Positions 4,839 through 62,848 are shown, numbered from the stretch's first letter. The stretch: 64,000 nucleotides of DNA from Candidatus Micrarchaeia archaeon (GCA_038874595.1 JAVZCB010000003.1:32001-96000); one strand, 5' to 3'. Program-made: numbers and translations. Notes: generated from the sequence alone by a model not told the origin.

Positions 4839-4875
4839 GAAAGGTTTAAAATAAAAGTAGTTATAAGTTTTATTG

Positions 4876-7910: not shown

Positions 7911-9139
7911 TGATGGAGCTGCTCCCAGTAATTTTATCCAACGGACTTGCATCTGGCGGTTCAATACAATTTACAGAGTTCTTTTATGCTCTCTTCCCGG
8001 TGGCAATACTGGTAGTAGTAATCCATCTCCTGTTCGTAGCGCTTATTTTTATGGCGGGGAAGATATTCTCAAATGAGAACCTCATAGGGTTTTCAAAGCA
8101 CGAGTTTGGGCAAGCTATGTTCTCGCTCATAATAGTAGGCTCCCTGCTTACAGTAATACCTCTAGTTAACCTAATCTTCTGCACAGCACTTGTTGATGTT
8201 GGATTTATAACAGATGGCTCGTGTTCACCACAAAACCTTTTCATAACCGCCCACCTTAAGGTTGCACGTGACCACCTCGCAGAAGCATACAATAACATAC
8301 GCGTCCTTGCAAAAGGCACGCTTCGGGCATTTGACTGGGCAGCCACATGTGCAGGTATGAGCGCTTCTGGAGGGCTTTTGCAGTTATCATCAATGAAATA
8401 TAATTCCATCCATGCATTCGTATACGGGGAATCATTCACTATGCTTTACAGGGTGCTTTTATTCCTCAAATTCCAGGAGCTTTTCATGATAATTAATGCA
8501 ATATACTTTTTCCCATTCTTGTTTAATATCGGCCTCGTTTTGCGCATACTACCATTCACGCGCAAGGTAGGTGGCCTTTTGATGGGGATAACCCTAGGCC
8601 TATTTTTCGTGCTCCCCTACATGTATATATTCTCACAAACTGTGGTTGAATCGGCAGAGCATTTCAGCACAAAGTTTGTGCTTGATACTTCAAAGTATAT
8701 GTTCTTCTGCATCACGTTCAGCGACCTTGTCGACCCAAGCGGGAGTTCCACATCATTTGATGAAATCATAGAGCAGAAGCGGGCAGAAAACGCCAGGGCA
8801 GGTGGCGACCCATCAAAGAATATCGCCGGCCAGGCAGCTGCAGAGCTGCTTGCCAAGATAAATAATAATCCACAGATAGGGTTTGGGTACTCTATTGGAA
8901 GAAATGGCAATATCCCAAACCCACAGGATAACCGCGCATTTGGCACAGGCAAAGATTATTATGACCCGAGCAATCCTCAAAATCATAAGTATTCGCTTGT
9001 AGAGGCAATAGCCAGGGCTATCCTGATGGCAACGTTCACATCAATATTTGCAATTGCTGGTACAATTTCGGCAATCAGGGAAATATCGATATTGTTCGGA
9101 GGCGATGTGGAGATAGCAGGCCTTACGAAGATTATATGA
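7910..9139 (+). CDS. CedA/VirB6-like polytopic membrane protein 3
   Basis: GLVLRILPFTRKVGGLLMG motif; C-terminal GGDVEIAGLTKII; overlapping stop/start. Confidence 0.6.
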   Translation: MMELLPVILSNGLASGGSIQFTEFFYALFPVAILVVVIHLLFVALIFMAGKIFSNENLIGFSKHEFGQAMFSLIIVGSLLTVIPLVNLIFCTALVDVGFITDGSCSPQNLFITAHLKVARDHLAEAYNNIRVLAKGTLRAFDWAATCAGMSASGGLLQLSSMKYNSIHAFVYGESFTMLYRVLLFLKFQELFMIINAIYFFPFLFNIGLVLRILPFTRKVGGLLMGITLGLFFVLPYMYIFSQTVVESAEHFSTKFVLDTSKYMFFCITFSDLVDPSGSSTSFDEIIEQKRAENARAGGDPSKNIAGQAAAELLAKINNNPQIGFGYSIGRNGNIPNPQDNRAFGTGKDYYDPSNPQNHKYSLVEAIARAILMATFTSIFAIAGTISAIREISILFGGDVEIAGLTKII

Positions 9140-10602
9140 GGAGGATGGTGCAGGTGCAACAAAAACAACACAGAGAAACAAAAACCGCAAAGCATTTTGC
9201 ATTGGTAGTAACCATACTGTTTCTCTTTTTTGTTGATAGTGCATACTCACTTGCACCCAGTGATTTGGATAACCGTGCAAAAGATATGGAAGATATACTG
9301 CAGAAGAGTTCGCTTGCATATATTACAGTAACAATTGCTATCCTCATTGCCGCTCTTATGTATATGGGCTCATCCATATTCAATGATGCAAAGCTTCTTG
9401 CGTACTCAAAAGAGACCTTCTACCAGTCAATAATCACACTCGTTCTTATTGCCTCTTTCCCGGTAATATATGTATTTATCTCACAGCTTTGCATTGAGCT
9501 TTTCCTTGGCGGGATGCCAGTCAACGGTGGCATGTTTGATGTTGCATCTGCATATCTTGCCTGGAATAATGTATACTTCTTCACACATCTCCTGATAATC
9601 ACAATCTTGAACGTAGGCATTGCAAGCCTCATAAACCAGCAGTATTCAGTGCCCATAATGGGTGTTTTTGCCACAGTTAACCTGGTTTCATTTGCTAAAC
9701 CGCTTATGTTTGCAGTCTCGACGGGAGTAACAATCCTATCAACGTCTCTGTTCATAAACTCGTTCCAGATAATGCTTCTTGACCTCATTAAAAACAGCCT
9801 TCTCCCAATATTCCTCCCTTTGGGCGCTTTGCTGCGCGCGTTCCCGCCAACACTTAACGCAGGCAACGTGCTTCTTGCAATAACTATCGGGGCATATATA
9901 ATAGCACCAATAATCTATGCATTTGATATATATCTAATCACACAGATTGTTGACCCCACGCAAGGGCAGAAGAGTTATTCGGACCAGCTTGGGCTTATGA
10001 GGTTCTTTTATACAAAAACGGTCTTTGAAACTATACTAACAAAAAACACCTGCCCATACGTGAAAAAGTTTGTAGGCATATTCACACCTTCAAGCGATTA
10101 CGCCGTGTTTGTAACACCATATGACAAAATTGATAAGAACCTGCAGGATTGCGGTGTTTATACAGGCGTAGGTGGCATATTTAGGGAAACAGCTGATATG
10201 CTGGGGAGGTTACCAACATGGGGAAAGATTGTCCTTGGTGTTGACCTGACGGCCCGTGGTGTTTCTGCAGCGGTTACTGCCACATCTTCCTTAAAATCAG
10301 TCCTGAAGCAAACAACATGGGATAAGCTGTGCAGCGGCAAAGTAATGGGCAAAGTGTGCAAAAGCCTGGGGCTTATAGGATTTGTGAGCTCAACCATCTC
10401 AAGCGCCTCAACAGCAGTCCTTGCGATATCCCTATTTTATTATTCTTTTGATCTTGTAGTGGGCACAGCAGTCTCTTTTGTAATCCTCTCTGCAATAATA
10501 CCCTTCCTAAACTTCACAATTATGGTCATATTTATCCGTGATTTCTCACAGTATGTTCTTGGCACGCCCATAAGCCTTGGGCACCTGGTGAGGCTAATAT
10601 GA
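9136..10602 (+). CDS. CedA/VirB6-like polytopic membrane protein 4
   Basis: GALLRAFPPTLNAGNVLLA motif; C-terminal GTPISLGHLVRLI; ATGA overlap. Confidence 0.6.
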   Translation: MRRMVQVQQKQHRETKTAKHFALVVTILFLFFVDSAYSLAPSDLDNRAKDMEDILQKSSLAYITVTIAILIAALMYMGSSIFNDAKLLAYSKETFYQSIITLVLIASFPVIYVFISQLCIELFLGGMPVNGGMFDVASAYLAWNNVYFFTHLLIITILNVGIASLINQQYSVPIMGVFATVNLVSFAKPLMFAVSTGVTILSTSLFINSFQIMLLDLIKNSLLPIFLPLGALLRAFPPTLNAGNVLLAITIGAYIIAPIIYAFDIYLITQIVDPTQGQKSYSDQLGLMRFFYTKTVFETILTKNTCPYVKKFVGIFTPSSDYAVFVTPYDKIDKNLQDCGVYTGVGGIFRETADMLGRLPTWGKIVLGVDLTARGVSAAVTATSSLKSVLKQTTWDKLCSGKVMGKVCKSLGLIGFVSSTISSASTAVLAISLFYYSFDLVVGTAVSFVILSAIIPFLNFTIMVIFIRDFSQYVLGTPISLGHLVRLI

Positions 10603-12053
10603 TGGAGGCAAACATCATAAAGTTCAATGTTAGAAGTGTAAGGGCCGCAAGTGTAATGCTAATTATCCTTTTTGCCTTTTCAGCTGTGCGTGCACAGCAA
10701 TCCAACGTGTGTGCTTCCGTGTTCAGTGGGGATTGGGTTATCTTCTCGTCGGCAGCAATTGCAATAGGTATTATAGTATACGCATTGATGTATATGATAG
10801 GAAGCATACTTAACAGACAGCAGGTAAAGGGACTTGTGCGTACCGGGCTGGCAGACATTGCAGGGCTTCTGATAGTCATAATGATGGTTGTTGCATTTGG
10901 TAATATTATGTGCACTGCAACCTTTAGCACTATAGGAATTGATACAAGAACGTTTGTGAGTTATGATTATCTTGTATCAAGCGGTGTTGACCCCGCCAAC
11001 ACGCCTCTTCTTGATTTGAGTGAGGCATACCTTACCCTTCTCTATTACCTGGGCGAGAAGCTCTATAAGTCACTTATAATACAGCTTGTATATGCCAGTG
11101 CAATCACATCAACAAAAGTTTCTGCAGGTGCAATGATTGGGGAGCTGCAGCCGCTCTCAGGGTTGGAGCCAATACTTAACATGGGAAATATGTTTTTTGC
11201 ATCCCTTGCCCTGGCCTTGATGAGTGTTTCTACACAGATGTACCTGCTAAAATTCTTTGCACTCACAGGCATCCCAACATTTCTCCCACTAGGCGTCCTG
11301 ATGCGTGCCATCCCTGCAACCCGAACCTTTGGTGCTGCATTGATAGGCCTTGCGATATCCATGTCGTTTTTCTACCCGCTTATACTCTCGTATAATTTCA
11401 TAATACTAGTGACTGCGGTAAAGCCGGATGATGCAATGCTAAACTCATTGCTTTACAACTCGCCATTATGTAATGACCCTCAGGATTGTATCAGCTCATG
11501 CAATTCAGAAGCATATGAAATAGATACAAGCGGAGGAAATATGCGCTATTTCTGTGCTCCGTGCATTCTTGTTGGGACACCCCCAAATAATGACGGCTCG
11601 TTGTGCTGCAAAAAGACCTCTATATATAAGGATGGCCAGTGCGAAATGCAGGATATCGAGCCAGAAAAAATGGGGTCTGGAGGTATTATTGCAAAAGGTG
11701 CCAAGCCGGAGGGATACGGCCTGACCTATTTCATAGGCGCATCTCTAATATTCACTATCGGGACGAAGCTGCTAAATAACGTCCCACTGGTTAGCAAATT
11801 GACAAATGCAATTTCAGGAGCTCTGATTGTGTTAATGCAAACAGGTATGGTGGTTGCGTATAAGTTTGGGCTTGGCATTATAATGAACCCGATTGCAATA
11901 ATGGCTATTCTTCTCGCCTTAAACACAAACTTTTTCTTCCTTGGGTTTATACTACCTATGATTGAGTTTGTTATAGTTATAGAATTTGTAAGAACGCTTA
12001 CAGGGTCTCTCGGCGAGCCCATTGATGTAATACAGCTCTTGAAGGTGATATGA
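10599..12053 (+). CDS. CedA/VirB6-like polytopic membrane protein 5, with Cys-rich loop
   Basis: GVLMRAIPATRTFGAALIG motif; 8-Cys loop; C-terminal GEPIDVIQLLKVI. Confidence 0.6.
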   Translation: MMEANIIKFNVRSVRAASVMLIILFAFSAVRAQQSNVCASVFSGDWVIFSSAAIAIGIIVYALMYMIGSILNRQQVKGLVRTGLADIAGLLIVIMMVVAFGNIMCTATFSTIGIDTRTFVSYDYLVSSGVDPANTPLLDLSEAYLTLLYYLGEKLYKSLIIQLVYASAITSTKVSAGAMIGELQPLSGLEPILNMGNMFFASLALALMSVSTQMYLLKFFALTGIPTFLPLGVLMRAIPATRTFGAALIGLAISMSFFYPLILSYNFIILVTAVKPDDAMLNSLLYNSPLCNDPQDCISSCNSEAYEIDTSGGNMRYFCAPCILVGTPPNNDGSLCCKKTSIYKDGQCEMQDIEPEKMGSGGIIAKGAKPEGYGLTYFIGASLIFTIGTKLLNNVPLVSKLTNAISGALIVLMQTGMVVAYKFGLGIIMNPIAIMAILLALNTNFFFLGFILPMIEFVIVIEFVRTLTGSLGEPIDVIQLLKVI

Positions 12054-12087
12054 GTTGTTGGAGCAGTCAACTATGAGGTGATATTGA

Positions 12088-13146
12088 ATGGCTTTCACGT
12101 GCCCGCAGGTTTTAAATCAAACACCAGCCTCTATAAGTGTGCTGCAAGCAGTATTGGCAAATGGTGCATATACAAACGCAGGCATACTGCTGGTTGCTAC
12201 AGCAACACTTTTGGCAATAGTATACATGGCATCAAAATTCATACAATCAAAGAAGGTTGAAAGCTGGGTTTCAAACGAAGCGTTCCAGTGCCTTGCAACC
12301 GCAGGCATATTATATTTTAGTGTGGGGATAATGCTGGCTGCAAGCCAGGTTATTGGTGTATTTCTTGTACAGCTTGCAGATTTAAACAACCTACAAGATG
12401 TTGCAATCATTATGTGCAATGCAAATGAGCCGCATATGTTTGGTGCAAAGGCATATCTTCTTACACGTCTGGACCGATTAAATTCTATATACGATTGGAT
12501 GTTCTACACCTATGCAGGCGCTGGTGCAGTAGGTGGGATAGGCGCATTTTTCCCGCAGCAAGGTACTATAAGTTTCATGCTTGGCCTGCCTATGAGAATA
12601 ATTGAAAATATAGAATCACTAATCCAATATATCTATTATGGATTCCTGTTTGTATATATCCAATTAGGATTGCTTGAATTAATCCAGGTGTATTTCGCGT
12701 ATGCGTTTGCAGCGGGTGTGGCGCTGCGTGCTGTGCCATTTACGCATTCACTGGGCTCATTCCTTATCGCCTCTGCAATCGGTCTCTACTTTGTTTATCC
12801 GGTATTTCTTACTATAATGCTACTTGCAAACCAGGATACTGCACTTAACGTTACGCAAAATGAGTTTGCAGCAATTGCAAAATCAGAATTCCCTGGAGTG
12901 TATCTCTCATATTATATAAGCAAGCAGCTCGCACACCAAGCGTACTTTTCAGGAAACCCAGAGAGCATTACAGGCTTCACAACTGCATATGAAACGCTAA
13001 AATCCCCTGTCCAGTTCCTTCTTCTTTCGATGATACTTTACCCGCTTGTTGCATTTGTGGCTACATATACATTCATCCACCAGTTTGCGGAATTAATGGA
13101 AGCTAACATATCTGATTTGGGAAGAGGGCTCGTCAGGCTTATTTAA
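12088..13146 (+). CDS. CedA/VirB6-like polytopic membrane protein 6
   Basis: GVALRAVPFTHSLGSFLIA motif; C-terminal LGRGLVRLI; GAGGTGA SD upstream. Confidence 0.6.
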   Translation: MAFTCPQVLNQTPASISVLQAVLANGAYTNAGILLVATATLLAIVYMASKFIQSKKVESWVSNEAFQCLATAGILYFSVGIMLAASQVIGVFLVQLADLNNLQDVAIIMCNANEPHMFGAKAYLLTRLDRLNSIYDWMFYTYAGAGAVGGIGAFFPQQGTISFMLGLPMRIIENIESLIQYIYYGFLFVYIQLGLLELIQVYFAYAFAAGVALRAVPFTHSLGSFLIASAIGLYFVYPVFLTIMLLANQDTALNVTQNEFAAIAKSEFPGVYLSYYISKQLAHQAYFSGNPESITGFTTAYETLKSPVQFLLLSMILYPLVAFVATYTFIHQFAELMEANISDLGRGLVRLI

Positions 13147-13589
13147 AGGTTATATCCAATTACTTGTTTTTATATATAAACTCTTCGTTTTGTGCCTTTC
13201 AGCAGAACTTAATTTTTTGTACGCTAATAGCTGATTTTAATCTTTTTTTTCGCTTTTTAATGCTCCTATAATTATTTTTACAGCATTTTTACTTATTTAA
13301 CTTACGATATATCTCATAGCGTTTTTTAAATGCTCATTTTTGCTTATTTCGTTAATTTTAATCAATTTTTATTGAGAATTTTTCCCAAAAAATTGAATTC
13401 ACACCTATTTATTGTTAACCATAATCGCCCGATTAAAACTATCAGTCTTATTTCTTTTCTTTATAAGTTTTTCGTTAATTTAATTTATGATTTTGCATAA
13501 TTAAGCACTTTAATTATTTTTCTCTTGCACGAATTTCATATTTAAGCTTATGCTCCTATAATATGACAAACTATTTTAAGAGGGAGAAA

Positions 13590-14666
13590 ATGGAAAGCAT
13601 AATAAGATCTGCCTTGGGCAACCGCGAAAGCGAGACCGCAGCAACGAGTGCGAGCGATGCAATGGACAATGAGTCCATTAAAATCGCCGTTATCGGTGTG
13701 GGCGGTGGTGGAAACAACACACTTAACAGGCTGCTTGCAGCAGGTGTTAAGGGTGCAGAGCTGATTGCTGTTAACACAGACAAGCAGCACCTGAATGTGA
13801 TAGACCCCCGCGCAAAGAAGATTCTCATCGGGAAGAGCATAACGAGAGGTCTTGGTGCAGGCGGTTATCCAGAGGTTGGTGCAAAGGCCGCAGAGGTTGA
13901 GAGGCCAACCCTTGAGAGGGAGCTTGCTAACACACACCTTGTATTCATTTGTGCAGGTATGGGTGGTGGAACCGGTACTGGCGCAGCACCGGTAATTGCA
14001 GAGATTGCTAAGAACCAGGGTGCAATCACAGTTGCAATGGTCACATACCCATTTGCACTTGAGAGGTCAAGGAGAATGAAAGCTGATGAGGGTATTGCAA
14101 AGCTCAGGAAGGTTACAGATTCAGTGATTATCCTTGACAACAACAGGCTCGTCGAGCTCGTTCCAAACCTCCCAATTAACGATGCGTTCGCAGTTGCAGA
14201 TGAAATCCTTGCAAAGGCAATTAGCGGTCTTGTATGGACAATTACTCAGCCATCCCTGATTAACATCGACTTTGCGGATGTCCGTGCAATTATGGCTGAC
14301 GGTGGCGTTGGCTTCATTGCAGTCGGTGAAGGAAAAGGCCCGGACCGTGTCCGCGGTGCAGCTGAGTCCGTACTTAAGAACAGGCTGCTTGATGTCGACT
14401 TTGCAGGTGCAAAGGGTGCACTCATCCACATTTCAGGTGGGCGTGACCTGACACTTGGTGATGCAATCAAGGCAGGTGAGTTCATCTCTGAGAAGATGGA
14501 TGACGAGGCAAATGTGAAGTGGGGTGCAAGGCTGTTGCCAAATTACGATGGCAAGCTTGAGATAGTTGCAATTGTTACTGGTGTAACTGGTGCAAGCATA
14601 ATGGGCAAGTTTGGCAACTACGAAGAAGAGAAAGGTGCAGTCACTGACATAGAAGTTATCGGCTAA
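13590..14666 (+). CDS. ftsZ: Cell division protein FtsZ (FtsZ2-like)
   Basis: GVGGGGNN, GLGAGG, GGGTGTG signature, NIDFAD T7 loop; GGGAG SD before 13590. Confidence 0.95.
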   Translation: MESIIRSALGNRESETAATSASDAMDNESIKIAVIGVGGGGNNTLNRLLAAGVKGAELIAVNTDKQHLNVIDPRAKKILIGKSITRGLGAGGYPEVGAKAAEVERPTLERELANTHLVFICAGMGGGTGTGAAPVIAEIAKNQGAITVAMVTYPFALERSRRMKADEGIAKLRKVTDSVIILDNNRLVELVPNLPINDAFAVADEILAKAISGLVWTITQPSLINIDFADVRAIMADGGVGFIAVGEGKGPDRVRGAAESVLKNRLLDVDFAGAKGALIHISGGRDLTLGDAIKAGEFISEKMDDEANVKWGARLLPNYDGKLEIVAIVTGVTGASIMGKFGNYEEEKGAVTDIEVIG

Positions 14667-49025: not shown

Positions 49026-49227
49026 TACTACAAACTCTGACCTTGCAACCTTAGAAGATCTCAAATATGCTTACAACCTAACACGTATATTCTTGTTAGG
49101 AGGTGATCTATCCGCAGGTTCCCCTACGGATACCTTGTTACGACTTAGCCCCCCTCATGAAACTCTAGTTCGATAACGGCAAGAACCGCTACCTCACTAG
49201 AACCTCACTTGGGTGACTTGACGGGCA

Positions 49228-49265
<38 letters not shown>

Positions 49266-49283
49266 CTGACATGCGATTACTAG

Positions 49284-49324
<41 letters not shown>

Positions 49325-49509
49325 CACTGGGATGGGGTTTCAGGGATTAGCTCACCCTTTCGGGTTTGCAACCCGTTGTTCCCACCATTGTAGGCCACGT
49401 GTAGCCCGGGAAATTCGGGGCATACTGACCTACCGTCGCTCACTCCTTCCTCCTGCTTAACGCAGGCAGTCCCCTTAGAGTGCTTCCTGGACGAATCCAA
49501 GAATCGCAA

Positions 49510-50004
49510 CTAAGGGCGTGGGTCTCGCTCGTTTCCGGACCACATAGCCTGAGAGTGGGGTTTGATGAAAGTGAGGAATTCTCTGGGAGGGGATGGAATT
49601 AAGTATTTGCCTTCTTTGATGAGCCTGAACCCAAGGCGCTCTATTAGCATCTGCTTATCAGCGCCGACACTGAACATCCTGGGTATTCCGTTCTCATCAA
49701 TAAATCCTGATGCATCGAACACGCCCGCAACAAATGCGGCGCTGTATGCATTCCTGTGTTTGAACCTGAGGTCCATTTCTTTCTCAACCTCTGAGAAGAA
49801 TTTTTTGTACCCTGAGTGGTAGAAATATGCCTTCTTCCCGCTCAGCAGTATCTTGCTTGCGGGCATAAGCCCTGCATTTATAACTGCGCTTATGAAATGC
49901 TCACGCACGTGCGGAAGCCCCCGCACGCCGATTCCTACCCATGATTTTCGTGTAGACCACATACCTATTATATATGCAAGTTCTGGCGTTAGCTTTATTT
50001 TCAT
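49510..50004 (-). CDS. LAGLIDADG homing endonuclease (short two-motif type)
   Basis: LTPELAYIIGMW (degenerate motif 1) and FVAGVFDASG (motif 2); GGGGG SD inside the intron. Confidence 0.85.
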   Translation of the reverse strand: MKIKLTPELAYIIGMWSTRKSWVGIGVRGLPHVREHFISAVINAGLMPASKILLSGKKAYFYHSGYKKFFSEVEKEMDLRFKHRNAYSAAFVAGVFDASGFIDENGIPRMFSVGADKQMLIERLGFRLIKEGKYLIPSPPREFLTFIKPHSQAMWSGNERDPRP

Positions 50005-50043
50005 AATTTCCCCCCATCAAACCTTATCTCAAACTCTGTGATT
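49533..50043 (-). mobile_element. 511-nt archaeal BHB-type 16S intron carrying a homing endonuclease (E. coli ~1093-1101; junction ambiguous, alternative 49541-50051)
   Basis: Interrupts TTAAGTCCGGNAACGAGCG; CCGG/CCGG helix with GAA and AAA bulges and ATCACA/TGTGGT inner helix. Confidence 0.85.
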
Positions 50044-50197
50044 TCCCGGACTTAACCGGACAGTTCACACCACGAGCTGACGATGGCCATGCACCACCTC
50101 TCGGCTTGTCAAGCAAGGTCTTTAGCCTGGCTCTCATTCTGCCGTCGTTCCCGGTAAGATTCCCGGCGTTGAATCCAATTGAACCGCAGCCTCCACG

Positions 50198-50232
<35 letters not shown>

Positions 50233-50332
50233 TAGCCTTGCGGCCGTACTCCCCAGGTGGCAGACTTAACACCTACGCTACGGCACGGCAGCCGCTCAAA
50301 GCTGCTGCCACACCAAGTCTGCATCATTTACA

Positions 50333-50374
<42 letters not shown>

Positions 50375-50446
50375 CTTCGTTCCTCACCGTCGGACGTGTT
50401 TTGGTCAGGCGCCTTCGCCACTGCTGGTCCGCCCAGGATTAACGGA

Positions 50447-50489
50447 TTGTAATCCCGTGGATTGCAAATTGTTGATGCAATCAACAGGT
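50447..50489 (-). other. 43-nt hairpin 16S intron (E. coli ~696/697)
   Basis: GTAA/TTAC helix, AA|A and AA|T bulges; removal restores GGGGTAAAATCC. Confidence 0.82.
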
Positions 50490-50761
50490 TTTTACCCCTA
50501 CCCCGGGCGTACCCCTGACCTCCCCCACTCCCAAGCCTAGCAGTATTACTGGCCCGCCCTTCGGTTAAGCCGAAGGATTTCACCAGCAACTTACAAGGCC
50601 GGCTACGAACGCTTTAGACCCAATATGCGTGGGTACCACTAGTAGTGCCGGTATTACCGCGGCGGCTGGCACCGGTCTTACCCACTCCTTATTCGCCTAG
50701 TTTTTTAGACTAAGCAAAAGGTCTCCCGAAGGAGACCACTCGGAGTTCCCCCATCACACTT

Positions 50762-50808
50762 TTGCACCTTGCAAAGCAAGTGCAAATTGCAAAGCTCGCT
50801 TTGCATGT
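50762..50808 (-). other. 47-nt hairpin 16S intron (E. coli ~381/382)
   Basis: GCAC/GTGC helix, GA|A and AA|A bulges; removal restores TGCACGAAAGTGTG. Confidence 0.82.
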
Positions 50809-51462
50809 TCGTGCATTGTGGAGTTTTCGCGCCTGCTGCATCCCGTAGGACTAGGGCCCTTGTCTCAGTGCCCTTCTGGGGGCTCCCACTTACATGGCCC
50901 CTAAGGATTATAGGTTTGGTGGGCCGTTACCCCGCCAACAGCCTAATCCTCCGCAACCTCATCCTAAAGCGGACACACTCCAATTCGTGTGCCTTTTGAG
51001 CGAGAGGGCATTCCAGCGTCTCTCACCTATAGGGTATTATCCTCAGTTTCCCGAGGTTACCCCCTTCTTTAGGGCAGATTGATTACGTGTTACTCAGCCG
51101 TTTGCCACTCGTCCAGGTGAACGGGTAGACTTGCATGGCTTAGTCGAACTCCGATAGCAGTACCCTCCAGCAGGATCAACTGGAGTTGCTAAGGTCTTGG
51201 CATTCGCACCAGTGTTGGTGCATCTAGGTCATACCACTTTGCGTGTAGTATCTTACCGTACATATGTGCCTTTCAGCACAGTGCACGTTTGCCTATTGCT
51301 CTTTAAGCCTCTCTTGAAGCCTCTATCTAACCCGACACATCTTCGGATTATCATCAAGTCGCCGCATGTGCGGCCTATGCGCCACAATGGAAGCAGGCCT
51401 CATAGAAAGAGTATCACATCTCGGCCTAGCCGGGTTATGGCATCTCAACTTTAAGAAGTCTA

Positions 51463-55222: not shown

Positions 55223-57835
55223 TTATTTTAAGAATTCAGCAACCTCTTTTATAGCCATTGTGATTAATTTACCATTAAGCATTGCAATTTTAATGGATGC
55301 TCCGTTCGCCCCATAATCGCTTATGCTCTCAATAAACTTGTCCTTGTTTTCTTCTGTTGCAAACACAACAATAACTTTTTCCTTACCGCCGATTGCCTGC
55401 ATTATACGGTCGACGAGGCGTGCGCCTTCACCAACGACAACCTTGAAGTTTCCACGCTTGCTTTTTATGTAGACATCACAATCTTTCCTTTCATTAAGGT
55501 GCGTGAAAGGTATTGCATTGTTAATAAGAATATCCCTTATTCTTCTGAATACTGAGAGGTACTTGTAGTCAAACCCGCTTGCCTGCTCCCATCTTGAAAC
55601 AGTATATAAATCAAGATATTCCTTAACAAGCCCTTCAAACTTAAGCTTGTCAAGTATTATCTGCATATTATAATCTCCTATAAGTATTGGTCTGCCCAGG
55701 TATGAAATTTTCCTAAACCCTAACTTAAGCTCCTTGAGCATTAATGGCATATAATTCCAGCCATAATCCTTGTTTATGCTGTCAAACAGCTCAAGAACCA
55801 TCTCTTTCTTTATGAATATCTTCTTTTTCTTTCTTATCTCAAATTCAGGTATATCAATTGCATACCTTACCTTCTCGCGTGCACGGAACATTATGCCTAT
55901 AAATGCAATACCCCCCGTGAGCATTATTGCAGCCCAGAACCACCATTGCTCATAATACATCCTGACAATATTTGATACTCCATCGTATTGCAAACCATCA
56001 ACCAGCTCAAACTTGAACGTATGCAGCTTACCCTCTTCAAGAGGCTCATCAACCTTAAAGTATATAACTGGCGTATTGCCGCTTAAACCGGAAGATAACT
56101 TTATCTTGTATTTGCCATCTATGACCACGTATGTGTTCTCAAGGTTTTTTGTGTATTGTGCAACAGCACTGCCGAGCTCTGGCGACTCAAGCGTGAATAC
56201 AAACTGTTGTTTTTTCCAATCTATGCTTACCGGTACAACATCTATTTTTGGGACTATAAGCATCGATGACGCAAGCGTTCTTGGTGGTGACGTTGGTGTT
56301 TGTAGGAGTAGTATATACTTTCCAGGTCTAAGCTGCGGATCATACTGTGCTCTCTGCGTGTATTTTATTGGGAGAATATACTGTGTCCCAAACAACGCCT
56401 CACTTTCAATCTCATTGCTCGAATTGATTACGCGTATCCACACAGGTGTAGGCTGCCTGAAATCATTCGAGCTTTCATCAAAGAATGCTTCTATATCAAG
56501 TTTTGAGCCGCTTAATTTCTGTGGTATGGTGTACAGGTTGTTTGCAGCAGTGCCCTTCTGCACGCGGTCAACGCGCAGGTATTTTGTTTGTGCATCCACA
56601 ATGTTATTGTTTTGGTCATATGCGCGTGCAAATATGCGCACGTATGCCCGGCTGAATACTGCCTCTTTTCCAAGCGTGTAAAGCGTATCATATGCAGCCT
56701 GGCCCTCGCTTGGTATAACATAATCTGCCGGGCTGGTGCCTATGAATTTGCCATATTCTTTGAGCCAGAGGCTATCCATTATGATCTTAGATATATCCTT
56801 GCCGGCCTCTTTTCCACTTTTCCAACCACTATCGAGCGTGTTTGGAACAATAATAAGATAGCCCGGCCCGCCCCAGTTAATTACAGATATGCCCCCATAT
56901 ATCAGCTTTACCTGGGTTTTTTGTGGGTCCTTGGAAGTTACAGAATAACGTGCAATATCAAGATATCCCAATCCGGAAAGCGATGGTGCAGTGCTTGATA
57001 TATCAAACCCAAGGTTTGATGCAACCTGGGATACAGAGTAATCATTGCCTGGGAAAAGCCTCCCTCTACGCTCATCCATTATGCCCTGGTTGAACCCGTA
57101 CCCTATATATAGTATAGTTACACCCTTTTGTGCAAGCTCTCTTAGGCTCTTCCCTTCATTACTTGTCAGTGCGAGCGAAGATGGGATATAACCCGTTGGT
57201 ACTATAACGAGTGGGTTAGTGCCATTTGGAAGCGATTCCAGCTCATCAAGGTAGATTTCATTAACTACAATGCCATACCCGCCAAGCTCAGTACCAAGTG
57301 ATTTCTTAAATTCATCATAGTATGTCGCTTGCTCTCGCCGGGAGTTTAATATATACACCTGGCTTGGCAGCGGGCCGTCCGCAGCATCCATGAATAACTC
57401 AACCTCTTTGACCCCACTCCCTTTGACTTCCACAATAGCATATGGTGTCATCTTGCTATGCTCCTTAATGTTTGCGATACCGTAATCCTTAACCTCAAGC
57501 GTTATGTACGGGCTGACAGATTTCTCAGGCAACCGTGCTTCAATCCCAGCACCCTGAATAGTGAACAAGATATATCCTATAAGCAGGCCCAGCATTATTA
57601 TGAATATGCCGATGTACATAAACACCTGCCGCAAAGCACCCCTTACAGCAGGCTTGTTCTTTTGAAGTGTCTGCACGCTTTTTGCATCTTGCTTTTGTGC
57701 TTTTGTTTTCAATGTCGCTAACACAATATTTATTGCATCGCCAATACCGAGCGATTTCTTTTTTGCAGGTGTAAACTTCTTGACATATTTTACTTCCTTT
57801 CGCAACAGGAACCTGTATTTTCGGCCTTCAGCCAT
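55223..57835 (-). CDS. Large two-TM protein with ~530-aa extracellular domain (last gene of the VirB4-like operon)
   Basis: TM helices near residues ~70-92 and ~630-652; co-directional and tightly spaced with upstream genes. Confidence 0.7.
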   Translation of the reverse strand: MAEGRKYRFLLRKEVKYVKKFTPAKKKSLGIGDAINIVLATLKTKAQKQDAKSVQTLQKNKPAVRGALRQVFMYIGIFIIMLGLLIGYILFTIQGAGIEARLPEKSVSPYITLEVKDYGIANIKEHSKMTPYAIVEVKGSGVKEVELFMDAADGPLPSQVYILNSRREQATYYDEFKKSLGTELGGYGIVVNEIYLDELESLPNGTNPLVIVPTGYIPSSLALTSNEGKSLRELAQKGVTILYIGYGFNQGIMDERRGRLFPGNDYSVSQVASNLGFDISSTAPSLSGLGYLDIARYSVTSKDPQKTQVKLIYGGISVINWGGPGYLIIVPNTLDSGWKSGKEAGKDISKIIMDSLWLKEYGKFIGTSPADYVIPSEGQAAYDTLYTLGKEAVFSRAYVRIFARAYDQNNNIVDAQTKYLRVDRVQKGTAANNLYTIPQKLSGSKLDIEAFFDESSNDFRQPTPVWIRVINSSNEIESEALFGTQYILPIKYTQRAQYDPQLRPGKYILLLQTPTSPPRTLASSMLIVPKIDVVPVSIDWKKQQFVFTLESPELGSAVAQYTKNLENTYVVIDGKYKIKLSSGLSGNTPVIYFKVDEPLEEGKLHTFKFELVDGLQYDGVSNIVRMYYEQWWFWAAIMLTGGIAFIGIMFRAREKVRYAIDIPEFEIRKKKKIFIKKEMVLELFDSINKDYGWNYMPLMLKELKLGFRKISYLGRPILIGDYNMQIILDKLKFEGLVKEYLDLYTVSRWEQASGFDYKYLSVFRRIRDILINNAIPFTHLNERKDCDVYIKSKRGNFKVVVGEGARLVDRIMQAIGGKEKVIVVFATEENKDKFIESISDYGANGASIKIAMLNGKLITMAIKEVAEFLK

Positions 57836-57852
57836 ATCTTTCCCTCAGTCAT

Positions 57853-58593
57853 CTAGCGAACGGTTTCAAGGTAGCCCTCACGGACCATCTTATTGAGCAC
57901 CTGCTCAACCCTGCTTTCGCTCAGTTTGTAAATCTTGCAAAAATCGCCAATGTTTATTTCCCCACCGTGCTCACGAATCCAATCCTGTATTTTCAGCATG
58001 AGCGCATCATCAGAGAATTTCTCAAGCTCATCGATCTTAAGCTTGAGCTCATTGCGTTCATCCCTTAGCTCGAGCAGGTCCTTGCTTAGCTTTTCATTGC
58101 TCTCTTTCAGCCTGGCATTGAGAAGCTGCTCTTCCTCAATCTTAGCTAGCAGCGCATCGTATTTCGTGTATAGTTTCTCATAATCCGAAGTGGCAAACTC
58201 CTTTATTTCAGCTAGGAATATATCAAGAACCTGCATATAGCTTCCAAGGTCTACCTCATATGCATCTTTAAGCAGGACTAGCACATTTGAAGTATACCTT
58301 AACAACTCAAGCTGTCTCTTACGCATGCTTGTTTCTGGGGTTATAGTGTATACCACTTCTATATTATCAGGATTGAGGTACATTATGCTGAATAGGTACG
58401 GCACACCATCTATGTCCCTGCTGTCAATCTTGATTATTGCGACACTATCCTTTATCTCGGCAACTTCAGCATCAGGAATACTGTCAACCATCCTTAGCAA
58501 TTGGTCTTTTGGGACTTTACGTTTCGCACTAAACTTAAATGAGGCCCCCATCGGTTCAATCACGACATCTGGTTCTTTCTTGTCAGCTGACAT
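57853..58593 (-). CDS. Coiled-coil protein with C-terminal winged-helix-like domain
   Basis: Heptad stretch, then GEINIGDFC..SESRVEQVLNKMVREGYL. Confidence 0.7.
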   Translation of the reverse strand: MSADKKEPDVVIEPMGASFKFSAKRKVPKDQLLRMVDSIPDAEVAEIKDSVAIIKIDSRDIDGVPYLFSIMYLNPDNIEVVYTITPETSMRKRQLELLRYTSNVLVLLKDAYEVDLGSYMQVLDIFLAEIKEFATSDYEKLYTKYDALLAKIEEEQLLNARLKESNEKLSKDLLELRDERNELKLKIDELEKFSDDALMLKIQDWIREHGGEINIGDFCKIYKLSESRVEQVLNKMVREGYLETVR

Positions 58594-58595
58594 TA

Positions 58596-59048
58596 TTATA
58601 TCCCCTCTGTCTTTGGTACATATCTCATATGTGCTATTGCCAAGAGAAATATGAGAAACAATAGGCCTGCAACAAGCGACCCAATTGATAAATTCATAAC
58701 AAGGAGCAACATCGTCATGAATATACCAATCCCTCCGTATATTATGAGCGAGCGCTCAAAGCCACCGCGTTTTTTCAGGTGTTCTTCTATATGCTTTTCG
58801 CATACCACAAGGGGATTTCCCTGTTCTGTATGCGTTTTTCTCTTAACCCATCTTATAGCGGCAATTACATAATCTTCCTTTATTGGGTAGCCGCTTACAA
58901 ATTTTGGCTTTGTATCCTCTGCCTTGTCGCAGTATATGCACACCCCACGCGCCATGTGTGCCTTGTTATGCCTTTGCTGCTTTCTCTTACTCTCACTTTT
59001 TCCGCTTCCAAGAAATGATGCAAGAATCCCCTTCTGTTCTTTAGCCAC
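58596..59048 (-). CDS. Small membrane protein with Zn-binding motif
   Basis: CIYC...CEKH followed by two TM helices. Confidence 0.65.
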   Translation of the reverse strand: MAKEQKGILASFLGSGKSESKRKQQRHNKAHMARGVCIYCDKAEDTKPKFVSGYPIKEDYVIAAIRWVKRKTHTEQGNPLVVCEKHIEEHLKKRGGFERSLIIYGGIGIFMTMLLLVMNLSIGSLVAGLLFLIFLLAIAHMRYVPKTEGI

Positions 59049-60609
59049 CTAATTCCACCTCCGTGCTTTCCCCTCTTATGCCAAGCTTCTTATAGTCTGC
59101 CTCTGAGAATATGTTGATTATTACACTGTCTTCCACGCCAAGGTCTTTTAGGAATGCAGTTATATCATTCCGGTCCACATCGTACCTTTCCATCATTATT
59201 ACAAAATCAACAACATCCATATGCCTGTTGGATTTGTCAAATAGCGAAGTGATTTCCTCAACTTTATCATCCGCCAGCCCGAACATCCTGAGCTTTTTGC
59301 GCAGCTCATCGCGCTCAAATGAAAGTGTCTTACCCACAATATCACCTTCTCCAACCAATTTAGGCTTCACATCAAGGAAGTACTCAACAACCGGCTCCTC
59401 ACCTTCTATTTTTGATAGCAGAAATGTCTCAGGGTAAGGTGTACTGGTCTGCAATGCCATGTTTACAGCTGCCTGCCCCACACCAAGCCTTGCGATTTGC
59501 TTTCGCATATAATCGCTGAAGTTTAGCGAGTTTTGGAGATAATCAAGGAATTTCTCAAACTTTACGCGCAGTATAAATGTCGTTCCCACATTAGAGAATA
59601 TTGCCTCGCTTATATCAGTCGGGTTTTGTGATGCAACCAGTAGTGCAAACTGGTATTTTCTACCCTCTCTCACTATCATTACGGCATCGCTATTTTCTTC
59701 CTTTGCAATCTTCCAAGCCTCATCAAGCACAATAATAAGCTTGATACCCTTGCTTTTCTCCCAACCCACCAATCTCATTTTTTCTTTGATAAATTGCAGA
59801 ACACTCAGTGCGGCTAGTGCACGCATCGTCTCATCTGGAAGCCCTGACAGGTCTAGGTCAACCATCCCGGAAGATATAAGCGCATCTAAATCTATAGTGC
59901 TGGGCTGTGCAAAGAAGTCTTCACCTTCACGAGTGAATTTCTTCAGCCTGTATATTGCATTCTCTAGCTCAACTGGGAATTCGTAAGTCCCCGCTGCCAG
60001 CTTCTCTTCAAGCACTTCAACAACGTTTTTCAGCGTGGGTGGCTGCATAATGTTTCCAAGCGCATCCTTCTGGTTGCGCTCAGACATCTTGAATCCCTTA
60101 TTTATGTATGCCTTTTCGATGGCTTCCTCGGTTAATCTCTTCTGTTCCGGGTAATTGCCTATATCCGTTAATATCTCAAGGCTCCTTGAAATCTGCTTAA
60201 CCCTATCAAGAGGCCTCATGCCTGCAAGGTCAAGCAGGTTGAGGTAGGACCCCTTACCGAGTGCAAGCACTTTGCCTCCGGCCTGCTTCACCCACTCCCT
60301 ATACTCCCCTGCCCAGTCGATTATTAACGCGTTTGTGCCCCACACGAAAGAGGCCCGCGTGAGGAATGTTTTGATGAAATACGATTTACCGGCACCGGAT
60401 ATCCCAACCACGGCAATGTGCGGGTTGGTAACGTTCGTATAGCTCCAGTGGAACGGCTCGTTAAACGTTGCAGTCCTCCCTATATATATTGAGTTTCCGG
60501 GGTCGCCTGTTACCAGCTCTGCTGGTGGTTCAGGAGGCCTGGTTATGATGCCCCTGCTTGCAATATCCGAGCTGTAAAGCTTTTTGTTTTTTACCTTGAT
60601 TATTCCCAT
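59041..60609 (-). CDS. VirB4/TraC/CedB-like (HerA-FtsK superfamily) ATPase
   Basis: NPHIAVVGISGAGKS Walker A, IIDW.GEY, LNLLD, IIVLDEAW Walker B, REGRKY, ASQNPTD; start set at MGIIK. Confidence 0.85.
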   Translation of the reverse strand: MGIIKVKNKKLYSSDIASRGIITRPPEPPAELVTGDPGNSIYIGRTATFNEPFHWSYTNVTNPHIAVVGISGAGKSYFIKTFLTRASFVWGTNALIIDWAGEYREWVKQAGGKVLALGKGSYLNLLDLAGMRPLDRVKQISRSLEILTDIGNYPEQKRLTEEAIEKAYINKGFKMSERNQKDALGNIMQPPTLKNVVEVLEEKLAAGTYEFPVELENAIYRLKKFTREGEDFFAQPSTIDLDALISSGMVDLDLSGLPDETMRALAALSVLQFIKEKMRLVGWEKSKGIKLIIVLDEAWKIAKEENSDAVMIVREGRKYQFALLVASQNPTDISEAIFSNVGTTFILRVKFEKFLDYLQNSLNFSDYMRKQIARLGVGQAAVNMALQTSTPYPETFLLSKIEGEEPVVEYFLDVKPKLVGEGDIVGKTLSFERDELRKKLRMFGLADDKVEEITSLFDKSNRHMDVVDFVIMMERYDVDRNDITAFLKDLGVEDSVIINIFSEADYKKLGIRGESTEVELGG

Positions 60610-60613
60610 GGCA

Positions 60614-61414
60614 TCATCCCGTTTTTTCAACAAGCTCGTTATAGCTCGTTGGGATAGCGTATTCCCATTCCAGGCACATCTCGGCATCCTCGCCAACCAA
60701 GTCAACAACCTCCGCGTTGAGGCTGTTTGAAAGAACAGCTTTAATCTCTTTTGACTGGCTGAGCGCCTTATCGCGTGCCTCATCCATAGTAATACCTTTT
60801 GCAACTGTCATAACATACATCACAGCAGCCATCGGCTTGACACCACTTGCAAGCCTGCGTAGCAGATTCTCACCTATCTCTTTCTCTTTTTGCCATTTGT
60901 CTATTTTGATAACATCCGGTTCGGCTTTCTCCATTTCTCTTTTAATCCTTAGGCTTGCTTCATACACTTTTGCCTGTATGCTTTCCCTGTATGCAGCGAT
61001 ATCTTTAGATGAGAGAACAAGATTGAGTTTCATTGGCGAATTTATCGCTCCGAGTGCAGTTTCAAAGTCGCGCAGGTAGACCTCTGCACGCTCTTCGGAT
61101 TTGCCGGCAATTTCTTCACGCTCAGGTATGTTGACCAACATATACTTTGCAGCGATAAACTTGCTCCCAGCCCTTTTGATTATAACATCTTGCCCAGGTG
61201 GGAAGATATAGTCACCCTTTGTGTAAGTTATCTTCATAATCTTAGTGAATATAGGAGTAAGGATGTAATCTGCGTATAAGTATGCACCTGCAATTATGGC
61301 TAGCAGCAATGCAATTATAAATAGTAGTAACCCTCCTTGGAATGAAATAAACAGGCTTACAAGCACTACAAACGCCACACCAATAGTCATATACAATTTT
61401 GGTATTTTCGGCAT
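60614..61414 (-). CDS. Membrane-anchored protein, VirB3/VirB4-N-terminal-like (paralog B)
   Basis: Two N-terminal TMs; full-length similarity to 61421-62182, ending C.EWEY.IP. Confidence 0.6.
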   Translation of the reverse strand: MPKIPKLYMTIGVAFVVLVSLFISFQGGLLLFIIALLLAIIAGAYLYADYILTPIFTKIMKITYTKGDYIFPPGQDVIIKRAGSKFIAAKYMLVNIPEREEIAGKSEERAEVYLRDFETALGAINSPMKLNLVLSSKDIAAYRESIQAKVYEASLRIKREMEKAEPDVIKIDKWQKEKEIGENLLRRLASGVKPMAAVMYVMTVAKGITMDEARDKALSQSKEIKAVLSNSLNAEVVDLVGEDAEMCLEWEYAIPTSYNELVEKTG

Positions 61415-61420
61415 TAATTA

Positions 61421-62182
61421 TCACCATTCAGGAGTCATAAACTCCCAATCAAAGCAGGATTTCATCCTGTTATGTGTTAAGTCATCAACGCGGACCGACA
61501 TGCCGCCACCAAATGTGGCCTTGATTTCACGTGCGCGTACCTTTGCAGCATTCACTGCGGCCTCTTTTGAAGCGCCCCTTGCGGAAGTTTGTAGAATATA
61601 CATGATTGCACGCGGCCTGTTTTGTGATTTGTATAATGATTCAAGCATCCTATCCCACATCAGCCTTTTTCTTTCCAGGACCTCTACGACTCTCTCATCA
61701 ACCTTTTTCTTTTGCCTTTCTGCTGCAATTTCACTCTCCACTTTGGCTTTTTCATCTTCGATTGCGCGCACGTACTTGCTGATGTCACGCTCATACAGCA
61801 CCGTAGATATTTTAACAGGGTCCTTGATGCTAGATATCGTCCTTTCAAAATACTGTGCATAATCCTTAACTTCATCTTCACTCTTGTTTGTCATTGTTTC
61901 ATAAACATCAACGCTCATAAACACGCTTGCAATATACTCGTCACCTTCTTGTCGTATAACTGCATCCTCGCTCGCAGGTATCTCAACTCCATATTTGACA
62001 CGTATATCTTTCTGGAACTTCGTAATAAAAGGAACGTATATGTTACCTCGCGAGTAAAATAACCATCCCATCATTGCAGCAATAATAGCAAGCAATGCAA
62101 ATGGCTGGAACTGTGTAGCAAATATCATCAGGAATATTCCTGCTACCAGCGCTGCATATGCGAGCGTTTCATTTAGGTCCAT
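61421..62182 (-). CDS. Membrane-anchored protein, VirB3/VirB4-N-terminal-like (paralog A)
   Basis: Two N-terminal TMs; KSE..Y..FE, P.K..VL..DI..Y, EIKA and C.DWEF..P shared with paralog B. Confidence 0.6.
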   Translation of the reverse strand: MDLNETLAYAALVAGIFLMIFATQFQPFALLAIIAAMMGWLFYSRGNIYVPFITKFQKDIRVKYGVEIPASEDAVIRQEGDEYIASVFMSVDVYETMTNKSEDEVKDYAQYFERTISSIKDPVKISTVLYERDISKYVRAIEDEKAKVESEIAAERQKKKVDERVVEVLERKRLMWDRMLESLYKSQNRPRAIMYILQTSARGASKEAAVNAAKVRAREIKATFGGGMSVRVDDLTHNRMKSCFDWEFMTPEW

Positions 62183-62193
62183 TCATACCCTCC

Positions 62194-62535
62194 TTACAAT
62201 TTTTCCTTGCAGTTGTACTGGTATGAATCTATATCTTCACCCGCAGCGTTTGCAACAACGCTAACTATCCAGGGTGCACTGAACGCAATGATAAGCCCTA
62301 ATATAGCGCCTATGGCAATCGTTGTAGCCCATACATTCGTCCTTGACCTGAACTCTGCCCCAAGCACTTGCCCGCCGGCATAAATCAGCCCTGCAAATAC
62401 CAGGAGTGTAAACGCAAGAAGTGGCATTACCGCTTTGATATCAACGCATATGTTGTTCAGCTCCTCCGGGAAGCCCGCAAACGCAAGGGCAAACCCAAGA
62501 ACAAGTGCCGCAAGCATATACATAGCAAATCGCAC
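62194..62535 (-). CDS. VirB2/TrbC/CedA1-like pilin
   Basis: Signal peptide plus two hydrophobic helices joined by a basic loop (GQVLGAEFRSRTNVW); first gene of the ATPase operon; GGTGA SD. Confidence 0.65.
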   Translation of the reverse strand: MRFAMYMLAALVLGFALAFAGFPEELNNICVDIKAVMPLLAFTLLVFAGLIYAGGQVLGAEFRSRTNVWATTIAIGAILGLIIAFSAPWIVSVVANAAGEDIDSYQYNCKEKL

Positions 62536-62592
62536 ATCATCACCTGTTTTTATATTCAGGAGTATATTTTAAAAACTTATATATAAAAAAAG

Positions 62593-62700
62593 CGCCCACG
62601 CTGGGATTTGAACCCAGATCAAAGGCTTGCTTCTTGAAAGCCAAACAGCGTGGCCTTTCAGCCGGAGGCCCTCATTCTATCCAAGTTAAACTACGTGGGC
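62593..62700 (-). tRNA. tRNA-Arg(CCG) with 37/38 intron (62628-62661, 34 nt)
   Basis: GCCCACG/CGTGGGC acceptor; AGGGC-CT-CCG-G|A-GCCTT arm; hairpin intron. Confidence 0.92.
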
Positions 62701-62737: not shown

Positions 62738-62848
62738 CGGGCCCGACGGGATTTTTGGGCGCATAACAGCTGAAATGCAACTGCCACACAGAACCCGTGA
62801 CCTTCGGATTAAAAGTCCGCCGCTCTGGCCAAGCTGAGCTACGGGCCC
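62738..62848 (-). tRNA. tRNA-Lys(UUU) with non-canonical 56/57 intron (62755-62790, 36 nt)
   Basis: GGGCCCG/CGGGCCC acceptor; CT-TTT-AA loop; GGGT/GCCC helix with TC|T and AA|A bulges. Confidence 0.92.

Follow-up and report, generated by a model that had tools for sequence, protein, structure and literature searches.

This locus raises the question of which machine is encoded by a seven-gene operon of a Candidatus Micrarchaeia archaeon, and what such a machine would move across the cell envelope. The window, meaning here the whole stretch of 64,000 nt that was analyzed (G000:C3:32001-96000; GCA_038874595.1 JAVZCB010000003.1:32001-96000), carries an archaeal rRNA operon and comes from a genome of 0.92 Mb in 7 contigs, 93.5% complete, with a guanine-cytosine (GC) content of ~44%. 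Seven open reading frames (ORFs; g1 to g7) run head to tail on its minus strand from 62535 to 55223, and a sequence-only reading of the window had taken them for a pilin-VirB3-VirB4-like operon of a type IV secretion system (T4SS), completed by six VirB6-like genes located ~42 kb away. Our analysis favors reading the operon as one half, comprising motor and pilin, of an envelope machine that derives from a T4SS, is chromosomal and vertically inherited, and has DNA import as its leading candidate function; to this reading we assign a probability of roughly 0.55. The closest characterized relatives of this machine are the archaeal Ced and Ted systems, both of them domesticated T4SSs that import DNA (PMC9905601), and no published description of the system in Micrarchaeota was found in our literature searches.

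All seven ORFs exist as the sequence-only reading had drawn them, co-directional and closely packed, with spacers from g1 to g7 of 11, 6, 4, -8, 2, and 17 nt, in which the -8 becomes +85 when g5 is started at Met32. Comparison with orthologs makes this Met32, at 58955, the most likely true start of g5, and the start of g4 is most likely the ATG at 60609 rather than an upstream TTG, the longer TTG frame (587 aa) overlapping g3 and lacking ortholog support. When the seven proteins were searched by tblastn against 20 loci of the class, taken from other genera and families and including 18 main loci, the order g2/g3, g4, g5, g6, g7 was recovered in 18 of these 18, which occur in differing genomic contexts, and one or two copies of g2/g3 preceded the ATPase gene in every locus examined. 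The ATPase itself is 87–97% identical within the family and 56–71% identical across families of the class. Gene order kept in 18 loci, together with this latter level of identity, indicates that the operon is real and under strong purifying selection. The pilin gene adjoins the operon in some lineages only. Several relatives also harbor a second, reduced paralogous operon composed of g2/3-like, g4-like (45–52% identity), and g6-like genes only, and their genomes encode shorter g7-like proteins of 650–740 aa elsewhere.

Synteny, native GC (the operon has the GC of the remaining genome), and phylum-wide distribution (410 homologous loci in the wider search) argue for vertical inheritance. The best 80 of these 410 loci, from which taxonomy and habitat were taken, all belong to metagenome-assembled genomes (MAGs) of Micrarchaeota from many habitats, and the window genes have their nearest relatives in MAGs of Candidatus Micrarchaeota that were recovered from hot springs, groundwater, sediments, lakes, and marine samples; the sequencing runs containing the stretch itself comprise hot-spring DNA only. 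The absence of a relaxase and of VirD4 from the window, on which the apparatus had been called non-conjugative, extends to the 93.5%-complete genome, where neither the T4SS coupling protein (PF02534) nor the relaxase PF03432, the only relaxase family searched, produced a match, and the operon is inherited across the phylum. Because neither component was found in the genome and the GC is native, we regard the operon as a domesticated T4SS, the third archaeal lineage of this kind beside Ced and Ted. This genome is also devoid of the canonical PrgI-VirB4 locus found in other Micrarchaeia, and its three T2SSE ATPases are located elsewhere.

The first component of the proposed machine is the pilin. 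The g1 product comprises a signal peptide followed by two hydrophobic helices with a short charged loop between them, and when searched alone against Pfam it reached TrbC only below threshold (E 0.18). An alignment of the pilin family (A7, 12 members, including two tandem g1 paralogs of 43% identity on contig C4) was considerably more informative, as 11 of the 12 members match PF18895 (T4SS_pilin; best E 9.5e-8), 10 match PF04956 (TrbC/VirB2; best E 2.5e-8), and the top PDB match of the family profile is TrwL, the pilin of R388 (E 0.015). By these family profiles, g1 belongs to the VirB2/TrbC T4SS-pilin family, in agreement with its earlier description as a small pilin-like protein.

The second component is the ATPase. 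In g4 the Walker A motif lies at residues 69–76, which leaves the protein without an N-domain of its own, and the Pfam matches are AAA_10, DUF87, and P-loop_TraG. Across 20 of 20 orthologs, the NCBIfam models ranked in the order CedB, CedD, monoderm VirB4, TraC, and HerA, and all 20 match VirB4/TraC models. On g4 itself, the TraC, CD1110, and Mbov_0397 models align with residues 39–379 (E 1e-15 to 1e-18, below the curated cut-offs), and the best family is the CedB equivalog NF041017, with 81.5 bits against a curated cut-off of 700 bits. The VirB4 and CedB matches cover the whole domain. A tblastn search of plasmids with g4 returned TraC as the nearest homologs (at least 5000 records, 4653 of them conjugative). 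With CedB and VirB4 models outranking HerA, the proposal of a VirB4/Ced-like Walker A/B ATPase holds. An exhaustive profile search with the ATPase, which collected 5058 representatives at E ≤ 1e-3, further revealed fused relatives of ~870–913 aa in which the ATPase begins near residue 280. One of them, P0038, aligns its residues 102–641 with positions 75–587 of the 590 in the CedB model (144 bits). A quick maximum-likelihood phylogeny of the ATPase domain places the fused relatives next to the g4 clade as its sister group, with a Shimodaira–Hasegawa-like approximate likelihood-ratio test (SH-aLRT) value of 93. Three separate supported clades were obtained: one unites g4 with the fused forms, another holds canonical VirB4 (TraC, the CD1110 type, and the PrgI-VirB4 fusion of other Micrarchaeia), and the third comprises the HerA-like Micrarchaeal proteins (SH-aLRT 99).

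The VirB4-type N-domain of this motor is present in trans, on g2/g3 and not on the g4 polypeptide. As had been described, g2 and g3 are paralogs (28% identity), each with an N-terminal membrane anchor. The AlphaFold2 model of g3, with a predicted local distance difference test score (pLDDT) of 84.8, consists of N-terminal helices at residues 6–60 and an alpha/beta domain at 64–255, and the top 14 matches of this model in a Foldseek search of the PDB are all TrwK/VirB4 of plasmid R388. Alignment with 8rtd_g by VIA-align (Z 10.1, root-mean-square deviation 3.0 Å, 146 residues) places model residues 67–255 on TrwK 221–376, which is the portion of the VirB4 N-domain immediately preceding the ATPase domain; the remaining alignment rows with Z ≥ 8 cover only a 55-residue helical hairpin. 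An alignment of the g2/g3 family (A1, 31 sequences) also matched the N-terminal 300 aa of fused relatives (hhalign probabilities of 92% and 89%), and the contigs encoding P0038 and P0075 are too short for gene context. By the modeled fold of g3, both paralogs are predicted to be membrane-anchored copies of the VirB4 N-domain, so that the VirB3 slot of the order first proposed is occupied not by a plain VirB3 but by VirB4-N-domain-like proteins with a membrane anchor. Because g2/g3 hold the VirB4 N-domain and g4 the matching ATPase core, we conclude that together they constitute a motor of the CedB/VirB4 lineage whose soluble core is encoded apart from its anchor/N-domain proteins. A VirB4 in the sense of N-domain and ATPase on one polypeptide is not what g4 encodes; the arrangement amounts to a VirB4 taken apart in nature, with the motor on its own and the N-domain on an anchor protein.

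Downstream of the ATPase core, g4 carries an extra helical C-terminal domain of ~100 aa. In many relatives a stand-alone ORF of ~100 aa, which the window lacks, lies between the ATPase gene and g5 and is a copy of this domain (residues ~420–517; 27–54% identity); neither the domain nor its stand-alone copies have a convincing Pfam family. Some relatives, including P0002 (1196 aa), P0003 (1026 aa), and G038:C37, carry an intein of ~540 aa in the ATPase, located exactly in the Walker A P-loop, where the N-extein ends in GAGK, the intein ends in VHN, and the C-extein resumes with SYF; G038 has a second insertion site near residue 293. The P-loop position is typical of inteins in highly conserved proteins, and its occupation in some relatives was counted on the side of a domesticated, non-mobile system. 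A predicted complex of g4 with g6 scored 0.01 against a mark of 0.32 and was counted neither for nor against an interaction.

The other half of the machine would lie in the six paralogous polytopic membrane proteins ~42 kb away. Members of this family share the core G-x-x-L-R-x-x-P-x-T-R-x-x-G-x-x-L...Y-P, and the genome encodes ~13 copies on three contigs. We surveyed presence and absence in 41 relative genomes, of which 34 yielded the polytopic family and seven did not (G009, G014, G019, G024, G029, G034, and G039); the ATPase ortholog is missing from these seven and no others. An identical phyletic pattern (34 of 41, the same seven absent) holds for the pilin family, and the cytoplasmic C-terminal domain of g7, present in 33 of 41, follows the ATPase pattern apart from two genomes cut at contig ends. 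The seven negatives are 89–97% complete and belong to four families (f2, f7, f11, and f14); since they fall in four families and relatives are not independent, the shared pattern reflects only a few independent losses or gains. Physical linkage was also found. In G013, from another family of the class, two pilin genes, six polytopic genes, a g2-like and a g3-like gene, and the ATPase gene follow one another on one strand, continuing on to g7, as confirmed gene by gene, and by coordinates G023, G028, and G033 have the same contiguous arrangement. The common phyletic pattern and the contiguity in G013 imply that both loci of the window belong to one system. Thus the predicted co-occurrence of the two loci was borne out over the 41 genomes and extended to contiguity in relatives.

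The VirB6-like label given to the six genes fared less well. Their membership of the same system stands, and VirB6 homology is without a Pfam or NCBIfam match. A search of the ESM Atlas with the paralogs returned only Micrarchaeota ('Microcaldota') clusters, plus a weak lead named CedA1 at 0.88. The signature motif recurs in a 491-aa membrane protein of the canonical PrgI-VirB4 locus, weakly (hhalign probability 36%, E 4e-4), and the 630-aa protein of that locus gave no hhalign match to the family. We treat the polytopic paralogs, which occupy the VirB6/CedA position, only as putative homologs of these proteins. Directly downstream of the six-gene array lies a gene for FtsZ (Tubulin and FtsZ_C domains).

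Table 1. Coordinates of the operon, the linked locus, and other features; positions are those of the window unless a locus is named
Feature	Position	Strand	Description
Leader	62546-62592	-	Between the upstream tRNA match and the GTG start of g1 at 62535; A/T-rich and promoter-like by sequence, with TATA-like boxes and a GGTGA putative ribosome-binding site before g1
g1	62194-62535	-	113 aa; predicted VirB2/TrbC-type T4SS pilin
g2	61421-62182	-	253 aa; membrane-anchored, VirB4-N-domain-like, paralog of g3
g3	60614-61414	-	266 aa; membrane-anchored, VirB4-N-domain-like
g4	59041-60609	-	522 aa from ATG; CedB/VirB4-type P-loop motor ATPase core
g5	58596-59048	-	150 aa; Cys-rich knuckle and two C-terminal transmembrane (TM) helices
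g6	57853-58593	-	246 aa; N-terminal domain, coiled coil, C-terminal winged helix
g7	55223-57835	-	870 aa; two TM, five-domain ectodomain, cytoplasmic domains
Six polytopic paralogs	4873-13146	+	4873-6972, 6969-7910, 7910-9139, 9136-10602, 10599-12053, 12088-13146
FtsZ	13563-14666	+	
Low-GC segment	26000-46000		20 kb, GC 0.29-0.40
16S rRNA match	49098-51186	-	2089 nt
tRNA match (Rfam)	62593-62700	-	108 nt
tRNA match (Rfam)	62790-62848	-	59 nt
Stand-alone ORF	L016:10018-10314	+	Copy of the ATPase C-terminal domain
Stand-alone ORF	L021:9784-10083	+	Copy of the ATPase C-terminal domain
Stand-alone ORF	L022:7995-8294	-	Copy of the ATPase C-terminal domain
Stand-alone ORF	L025:8332-8637	-	Copy of the ATPase C-terminal domain
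Stand-alone ORF	L027:8087-8383	-	Copy of the ATPase C-terminal domain
ATPase with P-loop intein	L023:8485-11628	-	G013:C2
g7 ortholog with in-frame TAA	L030:4511-7117	-	G005:C1
Reduced second operon	L031		G020:C16:1-12000
Reduced second operon	L032		G015:C5:42000-60000
Canonical T4SS locus	L039:3173-10063		G031:C2; TrbC pilin, 884-aa PrgI-VirB4 fusion, second TrbC pilin, two membrane proteins

The last three genes of the operon had been put forward as lineage-specific core components, and the evidence supports regarding g5–g7 as conserved, lineage-specific partners, kept in synteny and, for the orthologs of g6 and g7, without any above-threshold Pfam match. In the main operon g5 always lies between g4 and g6. 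It belongs to no known family, and its two C-terminal TM helices follow a cytoplasmic, partly degenerate Cys-rich knuckle. The alignment of 19 orthologs (A5) contains one invariant Cys, and the full CxxC...CxxC/H is present in roughly half, so that of the proposed Zn-motif membrane protein the membrane protein with a Cys knuckle stands and the motif is only partly conserved. The coiled-coil and winged-helix description of g6 proved accurate: the protein is cytoplasmic and its C-terminal winged helix is of the ESCRT-II/CdvB type, with sub-threshold matches to the EAP30/ESCRT-II winged helix in 18 of 21 orthologs (best E 5e-6) and a PDB profile match to the CdvB winged helix 2xvc (E 0.011). This gene is kept even in the reduced second operons.

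The g7 protein is the most elaborate of the three. Its AlphaFold2 model (pLDDT 83.7), with TM helices at residues 61–94 and 631–649, exhibits a five-domain ectodomain consisting of a beta-sandwich, a GATase1/ThuA/GH42-M-like alpha/beta domain, and three Ig-like sandwiches, as well as a cytoplasmic tail with a conserved winged helix and a small alpha/beta domain. In the VIA wide comparison, residues 159–404 aligned with GH42-type and ThuA-like domains at Z ~10 and residues 674–748 with winged helices at Z ~7, and Foldseek matched the model to Ig-like adhesin, S-layer, and MG domains. No Pfam family was detected in any of 18 orthologs, the profile of the cytoplasmic domain had no PDB match, and the ESM Atlas gave no feature match, its shape search returning generic Ig/MG-like matches only. 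In one MAG of the same family, the g7 ortholog is interrupted at codon 750 by a single in-frame TAA, which might reflect a sequencing error, a pseudogene, or a gene split in two.

Among the known systems, the closest parallel is Ced of Sulfolobales/Desulfurococcales (CedA, CedA1, CedA2, CedB, CedD/CedE; PMC9905601, PMC11868833), which is likewise chromosomal, is without relaxase or coupling protein, and combines a VirB2-like pilin with a polytopic membrane partner. CedB is the best-scoring family for g4, the fused sister proteins match it almost end to end, and in both systems more than one polypeptide shares the N-domain function of VirB4, the N-domains of Sulfolobales CedB and CedD each superposing on a different portion of that of VirB4 (PMC11868833). 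The Micrarchaeota motor core, however, has no N-domain at all, this being carried by one or two separate membrane-anchored proteins, and g4 scores far below the CedB cut-off. The Micrarchaeota system further differs in a pilin with a cleavable signal peptide (like TedC), in a polytopic partner that forms a whole family and has no detectable CedA similarity, in the three extra conserved genes g5–g7, and in its host, a DPANN symbiont and not a crenarchaeon, with no known link to UV or DNA damage. Ted of Thermoproteales (TedA, TedB, TedC; PMC9905601) is also a domesticated T4SS and combines a VirB2-like pilin that bears a signal peptide with a VirB4-like ATPase and a membrane protein resembling VirB6. 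It differs in that TedB is a VirB4 of full length, that its loci include ParA/VirC1-, HerA-, and Rad50-like genes not seen in the operon, and that counterparts of g5–g7 are missing.

The monoderm MPF-FATA T4SSs (PrgI/PrgJ-type VirB3-VirB4, Firmicutes plasmids) and the canonical loci of other Micrarchaeia share with the operon the order of pilin or VirB3 followed by VirB4 and the VirB4-type N-domain fold, and the canonical locus also shares the polytopic motif mentioned above. The canonical loci differ in encoding one fused polypeptide of ~890 aa, in forming a separate clade, and in their patchy distribution; their PrgI-VirB4 fusion scores 295 bits on monoderm VirB4 models. A further parallel is offered by the bacterial ultra-small symbionts, since the chromosomal T4SS of Patescibacteria (candidate phyla radiation) is near-universal, has VirB2-like pilins, mostly lacks a relaxase, and belongs to ultra-small episymbionts, although it is bacterial, with a full-length VirB4 nested in MPF-FATA, and an independent domestication (PMC12102498). 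The Micrarchaeota system is a domesticated T4SS of Ced/Ted type, and beside Ced and Ted it adds a third archaeal case in which conjugation machinery was domesticated, seemingly independently.

From these components a working model can be drawn. The g2 and g3 proteins would tether g4 hexamers to the membrane beside a channel made of the polytopic paralogs, and ATP hydrolysis would power the extraction of g1-type pilins and their polymerization into a pilus of conjugative type, or a conduit, that crosses the envelope. The long ectodomain of g7 could act as an envelope-spanning scaffold or adhesin, with g5 and g6 as putative adaptors at the cytoplasmic face. At host contact the machine would move a macromolecule through the polytopic channel. 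By analogy to Ced this substrate would most likely be DNA, providing a nucleotide source and recombination templates for a cell unable to make its own; DNA import is ranked first because Ced imports DNA (PMC9905601).

Several observations weigh against this model. Both the putative substrate and the putative direction of transport are taken by analogy from Ced. The ATPase family scores all lie far under the curated cut-offs, as with the 81.5 of 700 bits for CedB, and the backbone of the ATPase tree is a polytomy built from sequences without CedB, CedD, and TedB, so that the tree alone does not decide between VirB4 and HerA affinity. The polytopic paralogs have no Pfam or NCBIfam match, including VirB6, TrbL, and CedA, and with 5–22 matches per genome the family would fit a variable interface with the host no less well than a channel for DNA. 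For g5, g6, and g7 no counterpart was found in Ced, Ted, or bacterial T4SSs, and the machine may therefore work differently. Finally, the sequencing-run search listed no RNA runs containing the locus.

The same T4SS-derived machine might instead serve as a host-contact conduit for cargo other than DNA, taking up or delivering proteins, lipids, or metabolites, or docking an incoming tube of the host, which we hold possible but clearly less probable than DNA import. The searched Micrarchaeota are obligate symbionts and most of them have the machine, the polytopic family has expanded and diverged to a very large extent, and the multi-domain ectodomain of g7 is adhesin-like; furthermore, an analogous relaxase-less chromosomal T4SS exists in Patescibacteria (PMC12102498), and cryo-electron tomography (cryo-ET) of Microcaldus ARM-1, a Micrarchaeon in culture, revealed intercellular nanotubes with an outer diameter of 6.7 nm and a lumen of 4.4 nm and, in the symbiont envelope, a 21-nm docking barrel, without mention of a T4SS (PMC11329633). 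However, the only characterized archaeal relatives, Ced and Ted, move DNA (PMC9905601), effector-like genes were not identified in the operon, and the authors of the tomography attribute the nanotubes to the host and not to the symbiont.

The assembly of a purely adhesive VirB2-type pilus for attachment, with no transport, appears unlikely. It would accommodate the one to seven pilin-family matches per genome, the position of the pilin pair of this genome next to glycosylation genes, and the role of VirB4 as the pilus-biogenesis ATPase of bacterial T4SSs. To our knowledge, however, all known VirB2 pili belong to transfer systems, and adhesion hardly explains a motor conserved at 56–71% across the class together with so many paralogs in the channel position.

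An integrated conjugative element inserted beside a tRNA gene is highly improbable. A tRNA gene lies directly upstream of the operon and canonical PrgI-VirB4 T4SS loci do occur in other Micrarchaeia, but one gene order is shared by all 18 class-level loci despite their differing contexts, the GC is native, neither coupling protein nor relaxase was matched, and the phyletic pattern follows families and is not patchy. The two tRNA matches upstream of the operon were made by Rfam, without an ARAGORN report; the one nearest g1 is long enough that it may contain an intron, and the other is only 59 nt. Least probable of all, to the point of being negligible, is that g4 is a HerA-type DNA-repair or defense helicase among unrelated membrane proteins: HerA chains come first by bits in the PDB profile search (62 bits) and DUF87 matches in Pfam, yet these HerA matches are confined to the C-terminal half of the domain, for which reason the ranking was not read as making g4 a HerA, the N-domain of the partner g3 is of the VirB4 type rather than a HAS barrel, the HerA-like clade is distinct in the tree, and a separate, far better HerA is encoded on contig C1 (163 bits on HerA models). 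HerA was rejected for g4 on these grounds, its models also ranking below those of CedB and VirB4.

Returning to the T4SS-derived machine with DNA import as its leading task, its conserved gene set in 34 of 41 relatives, consisting of a VirB2-type pilin, a split CedB/VirB4 motor, g5–g7, and an expanded polytopic family in the channel position, bears on the long-standing question of how DPANN cells acquire what they cannot make. The molecules of the bridges seen by electron microscopy are sought, and this gene set is a concrete candidate that can be tagged, purified, or looked for in tomograms of the existing Microcaldus-Metallosphaera co-culture. A bolder and rather doubtful extension is that the machine is the symbiont-side apparatus of the host-symbiont bridge, as the 21-nm barrel or docking platform of Microcaldus ARM-1 and/or as the maker of VirB2-type tubes; if so, DPANN cells would obtain host DNA, nucleotides, or other cytoplasmic goods through it. 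The supplements of the tomography study make no mention of VirB4, DUF87, TraG, TrbC, or HerA (PMC11329633), and pili, secretion, and conjugation are not mentioned in PMC8784108. New from this window are a pilin gene beside the motor genes, the duplication of the N-domain gene, the co-occurrence of four components and their contiguous supercluster, the end-to-end CedB match of the fused sister clade, and the models of g3 and g7.

Two further features of the window were recorded. The 16S rRNA match extends over 2089 nt against a model of 1478 positions, which corresponds to ~600 nt inserted, possibly an intron, and a 20-kb segment has a GC content of 0.29–0.40 against ~0.44 for the genome.

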